Assembly (NCBI GenBank): GCA_965371805.1
Contig: CBDUZW010000004.1
Coordinates: 82,954-146,953, forward strand
Direction: 5' to 3'
DNA from: an uncultured bacterium
GTDB taxonomy: Bacteria > Acidobacteriota > Aminicenantia > UBA2199
DNA length: 64,000 nucleotides
Positions 1,965-56,091 of the stretch are shown piece by piece (positions within the stretch are counted from its first letter, which is position 1; each line of letters begins with the position of its first letter). The notes under the pieces are model-generated. The model saw nothing but the letters and a program-made list of their open reading frames with translations, did not search any database and had not been told where the DNA came from. The position numbers and the translations under genes were made by a program.

Positions 1965-3857
1965 ATGAAATTAACTAATTATCTAAATAAAAAAAAATCA
2001 ATTGTAATTATTGTTATAATACTGATAATCCTGGTTATGTTGGTAATGTTTTTATCAAAAAAGAATAAATTATCAAACCTGAATCTTATTGCAAACTCAC
2101 CGGTATATAAAATGCAAAAAAATGCATATCAAAGTTATTTAAATATAAAAAAAAAGTGGAAACTGGAAGGAGTATTTAAGTCTGATGATTTAAATATATT
2201 TTATAAAAAACAAAAATGGAATGGAAGAATACGTTATAATGATATCAGTTATCATGCATTTTTTACTGTGAACAATTCCGAAATAAGCTATTCCATTAAG
2301 GGTAACGACTTAAAAGGGATTAATTTTAAAATATTTAATCCGAAAAATTCAGTAATGACTTATTTCATAGATATTAAGATAAATAATAAAAAAAAGCAGA
2401 TTTTTAAGAAACATTTTAGCAAAAAAGCACTTTATAGTGACGAAATATACTTTCCTGAGCCTGTCAATGGAGATCTTGAAATTATTTTTTCATCTACTGG
2501 TAAAGGACTTGGTGCATGGATCAATCCCCGCTTAATAAAACAGAAAAAAGACCCAAATATTGTTGTAATTATTATGGTGGATACACTGAGATATGACCAT
2601 ACCTCATTATTTGGATATCACAGAAAAACAACTCCCTTCCTTAAAGAATTAGCAAAAGATTCAGTCTTTTATAATAATGCATTTTCGACAACTTCATGGA
2701 CACTACCTGCACATGTTTCGCTTTTTAGTGGAAAAAATTTAACAGAACATGGAGTTATTGCTCCAACTGACATTATTTCTTGGAAATATCCATTATTAGC
2801 AGAGATATTTCAAAAGAAGGGTTTTGTTACAGCAGCATTCACTGGGGGTGGGTTTGTCGAAGACAGTTATGGATTTTACAGAGGTTTTCAATATTATTCA
2901 AATGTTCCTGGTAGAGTATTCAGTATGAAGTCTGCAGAAAGAGTTTTTTCACATTTTAAAAATTATATAAGCCGATTTAAAGATAATGATTTATTTGTTT
3001 TTCTTCATACCTATCAAGTACATGCTCCCTATAAAGCGCCACGTGATTATATTAATAGGATAAAAAAAAATGTTAAAGGCAATCTTATTGGCATATCAAA
3101 ATTTATAAAGGATAAGAAAAATTATTTTAAGCCTATAAATGATGAACAAAAACAATTAATGATAGACCTATATGATGCATCAATTCTCTATACAGACGAA
3201 GTTCTTATTGGAAATGTGATGAATTATTTAAAGGAAAAAGGACATTATGATAATGCAACCATTGCTGTGTTGAGTGATCATGGAGAAGAATTTTATGATC
3301 ACGGAAGCTGGGAACATGGGCATACGGTTTATGGTGAATTAACTAAAATACCACTTATAATAAAGTTTCCTTCTAATAGTGAGAATAAAAAAAATATAGT
3401 TGATAATAAACTAACATCTATAAGTGATATTCCTGGAATTATTTTGAAAGAAAATGGTTTTGATAAAAATCAAAAAGATAGTATTCAAATTAGAAGAAAT
3501 AATTCAGATTATTTAATTCCTATATTACTCCCGGTATCACCAATTATTAAACAAATTACGCCAAAGATATCATTTATGACAAATGATTTTCATTTTATTT
3601 ATAATAAAATCGACAAAAATAAACTTAGCTTTTTTGACCCATCACCAGTAAAAAAAGAGGTTTATGAACTCTATGAGCACCAAACAGATAAAATAGAAGA
3701 AATAAATGTTTATAAAACACACTTAAAACTTCACAAAAAATATAAAACCTTAATAAAAAAATATTTAAATAGATTGGAAAAGATAAATACAAAAAAACAT
3801 AAAATTGATGAAAAATTAAAAAAAAAGTTAAAATCCTTAGGTTATCTTGGGAATTAA
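1965..3857 (+). CDS. Sulfatase-like hydrolase/transferase of the alkaline-phosphatase superfamily, with a single N-terminal TM anchor
   Basis: N-terminal hydrophobic helix. The metal-site motif VVIIMVDTLRYDH and the later SDHGEEFYDHGSWEHGH are typical of sulfatase, LTA-synthase and phosphoethanolamine-transferase folds. Confidence 0.8.
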   Translation: MKLTNYLNKKKSIVIIVIILIILVMLVMFLSKKNKLSNLNLIANSPVYKMQKNAYQSYLNIKKKWKLEGVFKSDDLNIFYKKQKWNGRIRYNDISYHAFFTVNNSEISYSIKGNDLKGINFKIFNPKNSVMTYFIDIKINNKKKQIFKKHFSKKALYSDEIYFPEPVNGDLEIIFSSTGKGLGAWINPRLIKQKKDPNIVVIIMVDTLRYDHTSLFGYHRKTTPFLKELAKDSVFYNNAFSTTSWTLPAHVSLFSGKNLTEHGVIAPTDIISWKYPLLAEIFQKKGFVTAAFTGGGFVEDSYGFYRGFQYYSNVPGRVFSMKSAERVFSHFKNYISRFKDNDLFVFLHTYQVHAPYKAPRDYINRIKKNVKGNLIGISKFIKDKKNYFKPINDEQKQLMIDLYDASILYTDEVLIGNVMNYLKEKGHYDNATIAVLSDHGEEFYDHGSWEHGHTVYGELTKIPLIIKFPSNSENKKNIVDNKLTSISDIPGIILKENGFDKNQKDSIQIRRNNSDYLIPILLPVSPIIKQITPKISFMTNDFHFIYNKIDKNKLSFFDPSPVKKEVYELYEHQTDKIEEINVYKTHLKLHKKYKTLIKKYLNRLEKINTKKHKIDEKLKKKLKSLGYLGN

Positions 3858-6329: not shown

Positions 6330-7183
6330 ATTACTGGTTAGTAGAACAGGGAGTTTCAACCAGCCTCTCTTAGAACGATAGGTGAACCTCTCAGCTCATA
6401 CCACTCCCGCCGTCCAAAGCTCATCCTCCTACCCTAAACCCAAAACACCAATGTGCAAATAATCCCGGCATTGTACTACTAACATTATTTAACCACTTTT
6501 TTAGCCCCTTTGATGTCATGCCTGAATCGCTTATACTTATTACGAATCCATTTCCATAATCTAAAATTTAACTTAAAAAGGAAGGAACTTAAACATCGTT
6601 TATGAAATTATCCATAGTAATTTATCCAACCTTGTACCTTTGGGTTTATCAGTTTCGCAATATCTTCTATACTAAGATCTGTTCTCAAATGTATTTTCAT
6701 TCTCCGTATTTCACTACCCATTTTCTTTATTGCTTCATTACTAGCTCCGGGTAAAAATTCTTTGAATTTTCTCCCCTTAGGTGATTTTGCTGTTCTTTCA
6801 CGAAATGAGTATCCCGGAAATGTGAATTCCGAATTTTCATGTTTAGCTTTACGATTACTATCCTTGCAGTAGATAATCTTTGTCTTTTCCGGATGAAGTT
6901 CCAGTTTGCATTTTTCCAACCTCTTACTGATTTTAGCTAATACAAACACCGCTTGCCTGAAACTTTTGCAATGTACAATTGCATCATCTGCATAACGCTC
7001 AAACGCCAGAGATGGAAACTCTCTTTCCAGCCACTTATTAAATGCATAATGTAGAAAAATATTTACCAAAAAAGGACTATTAACTCCTCCTTGAGGGGTT
7101 CCTTTAGAACGTTCTTCAATATTTCCATTCTTCTTCTGTACAGGTGCTTTCAATGTACATCTTTTGAAGATGATAAAAAGCAA
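6330..7183 (-). mobile_element. Truncated group II intron: C-terminal part of the intron-encoded reverse transcriptase/maturase plus a GC-rich 3' intron RNA segment (domain V/VI region)
   Basis: The ORF at 6608-7183 encodes RT motifs including FERYADDAIVHC (YADD) and the maturase X-domain tail QGWINYYG. The N-terminal RT domains 0-4 are missing. 6330-6600 is locally GC-rich and paired, which is unusual for this genome. Confidence 0.75.
6608..7183 (-). pseudogene. Group II intron reverse transcriptase/maturase, N-terminally truncated fragment (191 aa)
   Basis: YADD motif, thumb/X domain, and C-terminal QGWINYYG. Lacks RT domains 0-4, so it is non-functional. Confidence 0.75.
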
Positions 7184-7417
7184 CTGTTAATAAATCTTTA
7201 TGAGGCATCAATTCTCTATACAGATGAAACGCTTATCGGCAATGTAGTAAAACAGTTAAAAGAATTCGGATACTTTAAAAATCCTAAAATTTCATAGTAA
7301 ATTTAAAAAATTGATTAAACTATATTTAAAAAAAACAGTAGTTTTAACCAAAAAAAAAAGCACTATTGACAAAAAATTGGTAAAAAAATTAAAATCACTA
7401 GGGTATCTCGGCAATTA
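7141..7417 (+). pseudogene. C-terminal remnant of a sulfatase paralog (homologous to the 1965-3857 gene), broken into two frames with an internal deletion
   Basis: Translation 7141-7294 gives DDKKQLLINLYEASILYTDETLIGNVVKQLKEFGY. The intact sulfatase has DEQKQLMIDLYDASILYTDEVLIGNVMNYLKEKGHY. 7340-7417 encodes ...KKLVKKLKSLGYLGN*, the same as the sulfatase C-terminus KLKKKLKSLGYLGN*. Confidence 0.7.
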
Positions 7418-33888: not shown

Positions 33889-33901
33889 TTAAACCTGATT
33901 C

Positions 33902-33999
33902 AACCAATTTTAATAGCGATCAGCACATTCAGCCGCACCATAAGTCATCACAAAACTCCTCGACATACTTATTAGTATGCCTGTGGTTTTTGTAATAAC
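33902..33999 (-). repeat. Copy 1 of a repeated leader-plus-mini-ORF element (MSRSFVMTYGAAECADRY*)
   Basis: Conserved about 33-nt leader ACAAAAACCACAGGCATACTAATAAGT followed by ATG (33966, minus) and an 18-codon ORF ending at 33910. Homologous to 34048-34130 and to 55484-55621. Confidence 0.5.
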
Positions 34000-34047
34000 T
34001 TCTGCTAGCAACATTTATGCACTGCTCATCTATAAAAATTTGTTAAA

Positions 34048-34130
34048 TCAGGTTCTTATAAACCAATTTTTATTGGGATCAGTACATTCTGCTGCACCAT
34101 AAATCATCACAAAAATCCTTGATATTCTAC
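34048..34130 (-). repeat. Copy 2 (degenerate) of the same element, overlapping the 3' end of the radical SAM gene
   Basis: About 80% nucleotide identity to copy 1. The first ATG is mutated to ATA. A shorter ORF, MIYGAAECTDPNKNWFIRT*, runs 34107 to 34048 on the minus strand. 2 of the 4 substitutions in the shared ORF core are synonymous. Confidence 0.45.
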
Positions 34131-35167
34131 CAGCAGCCTTTTATTATTTCCTGGCATTTAGCGCATTTTCCATCCTGCAGGCCGGGAACTTCAGTATAAT
34201 ATCCTGACCTTTTTACCAGGATATTCTTACAGTTTGGACATAATGTGTTTGAATATTTATTGTCCTGAATGTTTCCACTGTAAATGTATTTTAAACCCAT
34301 CTTTTTCCCAAGCTCCACAACTTTATAGATGGTTTCAATATTTGTAGGTTGATGATTATCGAAATTATAAGTTGGATAAAATCTAGAAATATGCCATGGG
34401 ATTTCAGGGTCTGTATTGAGAATAAACTCTATAAGTTTTTTAATCTCTTCCTCATTGTCATTTTTTCCATTTATTAACAAGGTTGTGATTTCAATGTGAA
34501 TGTCGGCTTCTTTAAATCTTCTAACTGTATTTAAAACCGGTTTTAATGAACCCTTACAGTATTTATTGTAAAAATCATCTGAAAAAGCTTTTATGTCAAT
34601 ATTAGCCGCATCAATATCCATAGATAGGTTGTCAATTGCTTCATTACTTAAGAAACCGTTTGAAACCATTATGTTTTTCAGACCTTCTTTTTTTGCCTTT
34701 ATTGCAACCGTTTTCATCAACTCATAGTAAACTGTAGGTTCGGTGTATGTGTAAGCTATAGATTTTGCACTAGATGTGATAGCTGCTTTTATAATATCCG
34801 ACTCAAGTATTTTTTTTCCATAAATTTCATGGTTCTTTTGTACCATTGAAATAGAATGATTTTGACAAAAATCACAGCTGAAATTGCATCCCATGGCTGC
34901 TATCGAAAATGATATTGAAGCTGGTAAGAAATGATATAAAGGTTTTTTCTCAATTGGATCTGAAGACATTGAAATTACCTTATCGGAATTTAATGAATAT
35001 AATTCTCCAGATATGTTTTTCCTAACCCTGCAAATTCCTGTTTTATTCAGAGCTATTTTGCAATAATGGGGGCATAATAAACACGTAATCCTGCCATCTT
35101 TAAGTTTTTTAAAAAGCTTTCCTTTTATCATTGGTAGTTTTGTCAATAGTTTCAGAGATACGCTCAC
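34127..35167 (-). CDS. AmmeMemoRadiSam-type radical SAM enzyme
   Basis: CxxC-type N-terminal cysteines (CLLCPHYCK...GICRVR), the PIEKKPLYHF motif, and the radical SAM cluster motif CNFSCDFCQN. 346 aa. Confidence 0.6.
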   Translation of the reverse strand: MSVSLKLLTKLPMIKGKLFKKLKDGRITCLLCPHYCKIALNKTGICRVRKNISGELYSLNSDKVISMSSDPIEKKPLYHFLPASISFSIAAMGCNFSCDFCQNHSISMVQKNHEIYGKKILESDIIKAAITSSAKSIAYTYTEPTVYYELMKTVAIKAKKEGLKNIMVSNGFLSNEAIDNLSMDIDAANIDIKAFSDDFYNKYCKGSLKPVLNTVRRFKEADIHIEITTLLINGKNDNEEEIKKLIEFILNTDPEIPWHISRFYPTYNFDNHQPTNIETIYKVVELGKKMGLKYIYSGNIQDNKYSNTLCPNCKNILVKRSGYYTEVPGLQDGKCAKCQEIIKGCW

Positions 35168-55039: not shown

Positions 55040-55405
55040 GGAAACGGATAAAGGATCGCCTTAAAGTGGATGTATTCTGCTTCAGGGAGGAAAGTCTGGG
55101 CTCCATAGGGAAAGGGTAGTTCCTAACAGGAACGGGTTTCCGATATACGGAAACTACGGAAAGTGTCTAAGAGAATAGACTGCTAAGGCTATTGCTTTAG
55201 TAAAGGTGAAATGGTGAGGTAAGAGCTCACCGGTTGAAAAAGTGATTTTTTGACGCAGGATAAACCCTACCCGGTGCAAGGCTTAATAAAAGGGTGCAAA
55301 GGCTTTCCCGGCCAATACCTTTAGGTTAGCCGCTCGAGCAATTAAGCAATTAATTGCCCAGATAAATGATCTTTTTTGACAGAACCCGGCTTATCGTCCG
55401 TTTCC
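55040..55405 (+). ncRNA. rnpB: RNase P RNA (bacterial type A)
   Basis: Conserved GAGGAAAGTCTGGGCTCCATAGGG (P4 5' strand region) and ACAGAACCCGGCTTATCG (P4 3' strand region). P1 pairing between GGAAACGGAT (5') and GTCCGTTTCC (3'). Length about 366 nt. Confidence 0.85.
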
Positions 55406-55483
55406 AATAGTTCATTTTTTTTATATATAACTTAAATTGAGTGATTGTTTTGGATGAAGAGTCTTATAGTGTTGTTTCCAGAA

Positions 55484-55621
55484 GGTTTTACAAAAACCAC
55501 AGGCATATTAATAAGTATGTCGAGGATTTTTGGGAAGCTTTATGGTGCAACAGGTTTGGACTATTCGCCGAAAGAAATGCTCAATTCAGGTATAAAAAGA
55601 TTTTTTTATAAGGAGGTCTAA
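55484..55621 (+). repeat. Copy 3 of the leader-plus-mini-ORF element. The 34-codon ORF (MSRIFGKLYGATGLDYSPKEMLNSGIKRFFYKEV*) has a stop that overlaps the mogA start codon (TAATG).
   Basis: The leader ACAAAAACCACAGGCATATTAATAAGT is nearly identical to the reverse complement of 33967-33999. ATG at 55517. The stop TAA at 55619-55621 shares its last A with the mogA ATG. The AAGGAGG RBS for mogA lies inside the ORF. Confidence 0.45.
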
Positions 55622-56091
55622 TGCTTATAATTTCAATTATAACATTGTCAGATAGAGCCTTTAACGGCATATATGAAGATTTGTCAGGACCAAAGATAAA
55701 AGAAATTATTCTAGAAAATAAAATAGATTGTAAAATTTCAAATATTATTATTCCTGATGAAGTAGAGGACCTTAAAAAAGAACTGCAAAAAAGCCTTGAC
55801 TCAGATTATATTATTACAACTGGTGGGACCGGGATTTCTCCCAGAGATATAACTCCTGAGGTCACAAGGTCTTTCTGTGATTTTGAACTTCCTGGGATAT
55901 CGGAAATGCTCAGGTATGAATCCTTGAAAGAAACACAACATGCCGTGTTTTCAAGAGGTTTTTCTGGAGTTAGAGGCAAAACTATAATTATTAATTTCCC
56001 CGGTTCTGTTAAGGCAGTTACCTTATGTACAAAATTAATTGTTCCAATTTTGGAACATGGGAAAAAAATGATCGAGGGGAAGGGGCACTAA
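55621..56091 (+). CDS. mogA: Molybdenum cofactor biosynthesis protein MogA/MoaB (molybdopterin adenylyltransferase family)
   Basis: 156 aa. TTGGTGISPRDITPE motif of the MogA/MoaB fold. Confidence 0.7.
   Translation: MLIISIITLSDRAFNGIYEDLSGPKIKEIILENKIDCKISNIIIPDEVEDLKKELQKSLDSDYIITTGGTGISPRDITPEVTRSFCDFELPGISEMLRYESLKETQHAVFSRGFSGVRGKTIIINFPGSVKAVTLCTKLIVPILEHGKKMIEGKGH

Follow-up and report, generated by a model that had tools for sequence, protein, structure and literature searches.

The spacer between rnpB and mogA in the window (the whole 64-kb stretch of DNA that was analysed) contains a repeat that is very probably a MITE with the ends of an IS1380-family IS, inserted between the two genes. 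The element has the sequence traits of a MITE: it is shorter than about 500 bp and holds no conserved coding sequence, it is bounded by TIRs and by a target duplication (TSD), it is dispersed in multiple copies, its ends are found on autonomous, full-length IS bearing a transposase, and the orthologous site is empty in relatives. The 34-codon upstream ORF (uORF) in front of mogA is probably a by-product of this insertion and not a conserved regulatory peptide.

The gene for the bacterial RNase P RNA class A, rnpB, is located at 55040-55409 on the plus strand (Rfam RF00010, 266.7 bits, E 6.8e-86), outside the element. The gene mogA (MogA/MoaB family, PF00994) was assigned to positions 55621-56091 of the plus strand from its ORF and its homologues; its product has thousands of PF00994 homologues, a number of them named MogA/MoaB. 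The Shine-Dalgarno sequence of mogA, AAGGAGG (55610-55616, plus strand), belongs to the native sequence and also lies outside the element, whose end is separated from the mogA ATG by 30 nt. The ORF of 34 aa, MSRIFGKLYGATGLDYSPKEMLNSGIKRFFYKEV*, extends over 55517-55621 on the plus strand and is fortuitous by our reading. The last A of its TAA (55619-55621) is the first base of the mogA ATG (55621-55623). All the sequence-level claims of the original prediction for this locus, namely rnpB directly upstream, an ORF ending in TAATG and the AAGGAGG motif, were confirmed.

A 'leader' followed by an MSRIF start had also been described as recurring in the window with one mismatch, and this recurrence was found again at about 33.9-34.1 kb. 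The minus strand carries a second occurrence of the 27-nt core around the ATG, ACAGGCATAYTAATAAGTATGTCGAGG, at 33958-33984, differing at one position; 0 matches were obtained in shuffled sequences. The window copies are similar over 120 nt at 76% identity. With a profile of related copies, nhmmer detected two copies of full length and a half copy in the 64-kb window (E 3e-51, 7e-42 and 9e-07). Because of the shuffle result, the 120-nt similarity and the nhmmer E-values, the repeat is real and far above chance. Folding of copy B first showed that a single long hairpin underlies the repeat, with the 'leader' as one arm and the 'ORF start' as the other. The stretch originally singled out began at 55484, within the 'leader', and the full unit covers 55431-55590.

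This full unit, copy C (160 bp, plus strand, nhmmer E 3e-51), has a TIR pair, is self-complementary along its entire length and, folded as RNA, is predicted to reach -58.3 kcal/mol (z -7.55). A non-autonomous element with IS1380-type ends, it shares 84-88% identity with 10 copies from an Aminicenantes MAG. A perfect 5-bp duplication, TATAA, flanks it on the left (55426-55430) and on the right (55591-55595). The left TIR is CTTAAATTGAGTGATTG (55431-55447, plus strand; family consensus CCTAAATTGAGCGATTG) and the right TIR is GAAATGCTCAATTCAGG (55574-55590, plus strand), the reverse complement of which, CCTGAATTGAGCATTTC, is the partner of CTTAAATTGAGTGATTG in the pairing. Two to three mismatches are present per TIR; in the family consensus, the TIR is perfect over 17 nt. 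Judging from these mismatches, copy C may now be immobile. The apical stem-loop, GGCATATT-AATA-AGTATGTC (55502-55521, plus strand), is the best-conserved interior part of the ~160-bp subfamily and includes the ATG (55517-55519), which is paired inside it.

Copy B (159 bp; 33894-34052, minus strand; nhmmer E 7e-42; fold z -4.59) belongs to the same subfamily as copy C. Both of its TIRs have changed together to CCTGATTYAAC..., and its flanks, AAGAA and TTTAA, form no matching duplication. Half copy A (34061-34127, minus strand; nhmmer model positions 94-162, E 9e-07) consists of the 3' arm alone and is truncated at both ends. It adjoins copy B and starts at the stop codon of a radical-SAM gene (34127-35167, minus strand). 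Copies A and B look like a rearranged pair between convergent motB-like and radical-SAM genes. Insertion of copy B into copy A was ruled out, there being no duplication and no rest of A past B. A direct repeat of 123 nt with 71% identity was also noticed at 3141-3263 and 7169-7291 of the window, 4 kb apart; it is unrelated to the MITE.

Species-representative genomes were scanned with the 20-nt hairpin tip. Ten loci were obtained, each on a separate contig of the Candidatus Aminicenantes MAG GMC8.concoct.14 (JAOZTV01). At least 10 close copies are present in this MAG, all of them intergenic and in any orientation. Alignment of the MAG and window copies delimited a unit of ~160 bp with sharp boundaries and perfect TIRs, CCTAAATTGAGCGATT ... 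AATCGCTCAATTTAGG. Metagenomes were scanned with the 21-nt end, which at least 120 contigs carry, and inverted ends were then paired. Among the matches listed, the elements with CCTAAATTGAGCGATT ends form a small class (63 elements of 93-401 bp) and a long class (13 elements of ~1.7-1.9 kb). The G+C content of the elements of the family ranges from 35 to 63%. Two different MITE subfamilies with the same IS1380-type ends were observed within ~1.5 kb of each other on single contigs (L013, 201-427 and 1674-1857; L029, 8056-8234 and 8667-8893).

Perfect 5-bp duplications were found around 41 of the 62 small elements with both flanks, among the matches listed; in the outward control, for which the next 5 bp out were compared, direct repeats were found in 0 of these 62. 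The duplication had the form TNNNA in 38 of the 41 perfect cases, again among the matches listed, and the TATAA of copy C fits this form. A 3-bp duplication with ACC...GGT ends had been considered and was dropped. The 5-bp duplication with CC...GG ends was preferred, since nearly every copy has T and A at the positions 5 nt outside.

Four long elements were read and each was found to encode a protein of 463-468 aa. When two of these proteins were scanned, both matched the NF033539 model 'IS1380 family transposase' (234.7 and 245.8 bits, for a cutoff of 180), and the same two match PF13701 at 110-117 bits. One of these two transposases has 2837 relatives at E ≤ 1e-50. Some of the relatives, from MAGs of several phyla, bear the NCBI name IS1380 family transposase. 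No match was obtained when a transposase of the IS1380 clade was searched against the 64-kb window by tblastn; as no IS1380-family transposase is encoded in the window, copy C is non-autonomous here. The sampled full-length IS resemble the MITE, and each other, for only ~20 nt at their ends, and the interiors are unrelated. Because the match between the IS and MITE ends is limited to about 20 nt, the MITE was judged not to derive from the sampled IS copies by a simple internal deletion. A blastn search of plasmids with one full-length IS (L012) returned a single weak match of 142 nt. The full-length copies comprise L011, L012, L028, L035-L037, L051, L067, L081, L089, L111, L113 and L130. A perfect 5-bp flanking duplication was found for 0 of these 13, the best being 4/5, among the matches listed.

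The rnpB-mogA site was compared with that of related genomes. The closest MogA homologues are P0002 of the JAOZTV01 MAG (81% identity) and the proteins of two metagenome contigs (79% and 78%). Synteny of rnpB and mogA is kept in three relatives, L131, L132 and L133, whose MogA proteins are 78-81% identical. The MITE is absent from the rnpB-mogA spacer of all three, which represent related species and not strains of the same species. Their spacers measure 177, 110 and 53 nt. When 55431-55595 (the element with one TATAA) is taken out of the window, 46 nt of spacer remain, and this restored spacer is collinear with the 53-nt spacer of L133 from the 3' end of rnpB through the Shine-Dalgarno sequence into mogA.

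The spacers of L131 (364-540) and L132 (1566-1675) contain a different long hairpin. It is made of AGGCA-rich tandem units of 7-8 nt and their inverted complement. The L131 hairpin reaches -83.8 kcal/mol, and that of L132 has GATTTTTTT after it. At 90%, a 40-nt piece of this AGGCA-rich hairpin was found again at another place in the same MAG (L007, 1483-1522). The L133 spacer has no hairpin at all. With the window, L131 and L132 taken together, three of four related genomes therefore have a long hairpin directly after rnpB. This site could be an insertion hotspot or could carry a selected structure.

The 34-aa ORF is composed of 74 nt of the MITE 3' arm, then the TSD, then 26 nt of the native mogA leader up to the TAA. 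The frame that begins at the ATG was followed in the 13 copies that keep the core. Stops were met at 8, 8, 8, 18, 25, 26, 26, 30, 30, 34, 41 and 44 codons; one frame runs off the flank, and one copy starts with CTG instead of ATG. Owing to a 1-nt indel, the window copy and L004 (...GLDYSPKEMLNSG) are out of frame with most MAG copies (...GFSLFAERIAQFR). The ATG core is absent altogether from other subfamilies with the same ends. No Shine-Dalgarno sequence is present in the 20 nt before the uORF ATG (CCACAGGCATATTAATAAGT), and the AUG is predicted to be paired in the 8-bp apical stem of the -58 kcal/mol hairpin. The 14 copies examined are all intergenic (14/14), in convergent, tandem and divergent gene settings. 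For three copies (window 55431-55590; L002, 4476-4636; L123, 5879-6037) a start codon follows at 23-30 nt, which places these copies just short of the ribosome-binding region; only the window copy has its ATG arm toward the gene. The TAATG at the mogA start (55619-55623 in the window) also occurs in L131 (539-543) and L132 (1674-1678), that is in three of four related genomes. In L131 and L132, the frame that ends at TAATG lacks a start and stays open over only 4-5 codons. Since TAATG is found without the ORF in these two relatives, the overlap is a native feature of the mogA leader. No uORF-like ORF was found in the three relatives with rnpB-mogA synteny, and equivalents of the Shine-Dalgarno sequence (GGAGG or AAGGAG) are present upstream of mogA in element-free relatives.

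These data bear on the proposal, made in the original prediction, of a translationally coupled leader peptide for mogA. On this regulatory view, ribosomes would translate the 34-codon ORF and, by terminating at TAATG, couple or attenuate the translation of mogA; the repeat would be a family of leader cassettes. The ORF, its ATG and the TAATG overlap are all present, and most close copies keep the frame open through the 3' arm, for 25-41 codons. The proposal is nevertheless extremely improbable: neither the peptide nor the frame is conserved (the 1-nt indel sets the window copy against most MAG copies, and stops occur at 8 or 18 codons elsewhere), the uORF has no Shine-Dalgarno sequence and its AUG is held in the apical stem, and mogA has an AAGGAGG of its own. 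It is further weakened by the relatives with TAATG but no ORF in frame, in which the overlap predates the ORF, by the single start-proximal copy out of three that faces its gene, and by the same-end subfamilies devoid of the ATG core. The uORF is probably left untranslated, and mogA most likely relies on its own strong Shine-Dalgarno sequence, as in the element-free relatives. A mobile promoter cassette was considered along with the leader peptide. In this case an outward or internal promoter of the element would drive mogA, with a transcript start near the uORF ATG. Strong outward promoters are known in the IS1380-family elements ISEcp1 and ISPme1 (PMC9330008), the element stands only 30 nt from the mogA ATG, so that a promoter downstream of it is hardly possible, and a -35-like hexamer (TTTACA/TTGCAA) is conserved in the 5' arm when inspected by eye. 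The best candidate, also picked by eye and weak, combines TTTACA (55487-55492), a gap of 16-17 nt and TAATAA/AATAAG. Against this, the candidate -10 fits at only 3-4 of 6 positions, the invariant T6 not being among them, and a sigma-70 consensus scan of 55431-55590 showed no plus-strand promoter, with the restriction that Aminicenantes may follow promoter rules other than this consensus. The known IS1380 promoters sit in the IS interiors, which the MITE does not share, and the copies are found downstream of genes or between convergent genes as often as upstream. A promoter role is thus very unlikely.

Of the overall proposal of a 'mobile promoter/leader cassette or regulatory uORF family', only the first word stands: the element is a dispersed, transposon-like repeat. 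The promoter part finds no counterpart in the consensus scan of the plus strand, the leader part is not supported, and a uORF family does not agree with copies placed in every gene arrangement and with frames broken by indels.

The hairpin itself was analysed on both strands. The two strands of copy C differ, with z -7.55 for the forward one and -2.70 for the reverse. RNAalifold on 14 copies of the ~160-bp subfamily gave 58 pairs over the whole element, 25 of which show compensatory double changes, against 12.4±1.9 in shuffles. Paired cells amount to 92.8%, against 85.0±0.7% in shuffles (0/500 shuffles as high) and 33-50% with slid partners. The pair cells of these 14 copies include 96 G·U and 11 A·C. 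In 14/14 copies, the diverged metagenome ones included, the ATG-carrying forward strand has a fold that is 18-34 kcal/mol better than that of its reverse complement. Other subfamilies with the same ends have strand differences no larger than those of random 160-mers of the window; the median is 5 in all 63 small elements (the subfamily included, among the matches listed) vs 5.75 for the random 160-mers. Among 8 close copies, single transitions created G·U 16 times and A·C 6 times, and about 13-14 disruptive transversions were counted. From these counts, individual copies decay and the asymmetry is therefore mostly inherited from master copies. The orientation of the copies relative to the flanking genes shows no bias (about 4-6 sense, 7 antisense).

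A purely selfish double-stranded DNA element would not predict this covariation and strand asymmetry. The asymmetry may come from selection acting on the element as a single strand, either RNA or an intermediate of transposition, from strand-biased deamination in the master lineage, or from the capture of a pre-existing RNA hairpin. That the ~160-bp subfamily is more than a selfish DNA repeat, its hairpin being selected on one specific single strand, is regarded as quite doubtful. Such selection may mean that the IS1380-family transposase acts on a folded single-stranded intermediate of the element; the pathway used by transposases of this family is not known (PMC9330008). It may otherwise mean that the element spreads a functional RNA hairpin that is reused by hosts, for example after rnpB, the spot at which two relatives have independently placed another long hairpin.

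Reuse of the MITE hairpin as a forward-strand RNA at the present site would give it the role of a 3' terminator or insulator of rnpB, or of a 5' stabiliser or RNase III site of the mogA mRNA. This is rather unlikely, although several observations speak for it. The covariation is strong, G·U cells far outnumber A·C cells, the forward strand has the much lower z, and copy C is sense-oriented between rnpB and mogA. A-U pairs from the flanks lengthen the stem of the element, and a U7 run is located 2 nt further on, an architecture that is atypical of an intrinsic terminator. A different long hairpin occupies the same spot in two relatives, with GATTTTTTT behind it in L132. On the other side, the terminator scan gave nothing on the plus strand in the element. 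Given the A-U-extended stem and the U7 run, a terminator or insulator effect on rnpB read-through is therefore conceivable, although unsupported. The orientation of the copies is unbiased or mostly antisense, disruptive transversions build up in single copies, and the spacer of L133 is hairpin-free. The element has no match in Rfam at the gathering score, and only chance-level eukaryotic matches at E up to 10. This lack of an Rfam match was also the reason for discarding a Moco riboswitch in front of mogA.

We therefore return to the insertion of a MITE as the preferred explanation. An IS1380-family DDE transposase, acting in trans, would recognise the 16-22-bp ends (CCTAAATTGAGCGATT...) and would insert the element at T-N-N-N-A in AT-rich intergenic DNA, with duplication of 5 bp. 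Copy C would have entered the TATAA of a 46-nt rnpB-mogA spacer, 30 nt before the mogA ATG, and the native Shine-Dalgarno sequence and the native TAATG would both have been spared. One open frame in the 3' arm of the MITE runs into the native TAA, and in this way the 34-codon 'uORF' appears. The insertion probably has little or no effect on mogA expression. Should transcription come in from rnpB, the -58 kcal/mol hairpin would now be part of the mogA leader.

The element resembles the bacterial hairpin MITEs, such as Correia/NEMIS of Neisseria, ERIC/YPAL of enterobacteria and RUP of pneumococcus. It is ~160 bp long, non-coding, with TIRs and a TSD; it is dispersed in AT-rich intergenic DNA, often near gene starts or ends; and a single long stem-loop is predicted for its transcript. 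For MITEs, these traits (small size, absence of coding sequence, TIR, TSD, intergenic location, long stem-loop) are summarised in PMC10969869. It differs from those hairpin MITEs by its ends and 5-bp TNNNA duplication, which are of the IS1380 type, by its hosts, which are uncultured Aminicenantes-like bacteria, and by the marked strand asymmetry of its hairpin. The IS1380 family is not mentioned as a MITE parent in the same 2024 review of prokaryotic MITEs (PMC10969869), and neither a MITE derived from that family nor one described in Aminicenantes turned up in our literature search.

The termini of the element begin with CC, as do those of the IS1380-family IS ISEcp1 and ISPme1. The IRL of ISEcp1, located 151 nt upstream of the annotated transposase gene, starts with CCTAGATTCTACG and agrees with CCTAAATTGAGCG at 9 of 13 positions. 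ISEcp1 also produces 5-bp AT-rich duplications, for example TATGA (PMC2887853). In line with the IS1380 family, the full-length elements with the same ends encode transposases that score above the NF033539 cutoff. Unlike IS1380-family IS, the window element has no transposase and has only ~20 nt per end in common with the sampled IS copies; an outward promoter of the ISEcp1 type was not identified in it.

A comparison can also be made with the Rickettsia palindromic elements (RPE) and with the small ORF-carrying mobile sequences of enterobacteria, which are likewise palindromic with one frame open over much of their length. Insertion of a palindromic mobile repeat with an open frame can therefore create or extend an ORF, here one of 34 aa (up to 58 aa). 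Unlike RPE, the copies examined are all intergenic and not in frame in genes, and the open frame is not preserved. With coupled upstream ORFs and leader peptides, the present case has in common a short ORF ending in TAATG over the downstream start codon. It departs from them in the absence of a conserved peptide and of a Shine-Dalgarno sequence, in the sequestered AUG, in an overlap motif that is older than the ORF, and in the lack of a conserved link of the copies to a gene class.

The uORF, the 'leader' and the copies at the terminator region are thus one MITE, for which annotation as a leader peptide or as a regulatory family should be avoided. The MITE belongs to a large, environmentally widespread set, in which one nearly invariant IS1380-type end is combined with many hairpin bodies, and this set is paired with a very abundant clade of the IS1380 family. 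If the strand-asymmetric hairpin is selected, it could inform on how IS1380-family elements move or on the reuse of MITE hairpins as RNA.
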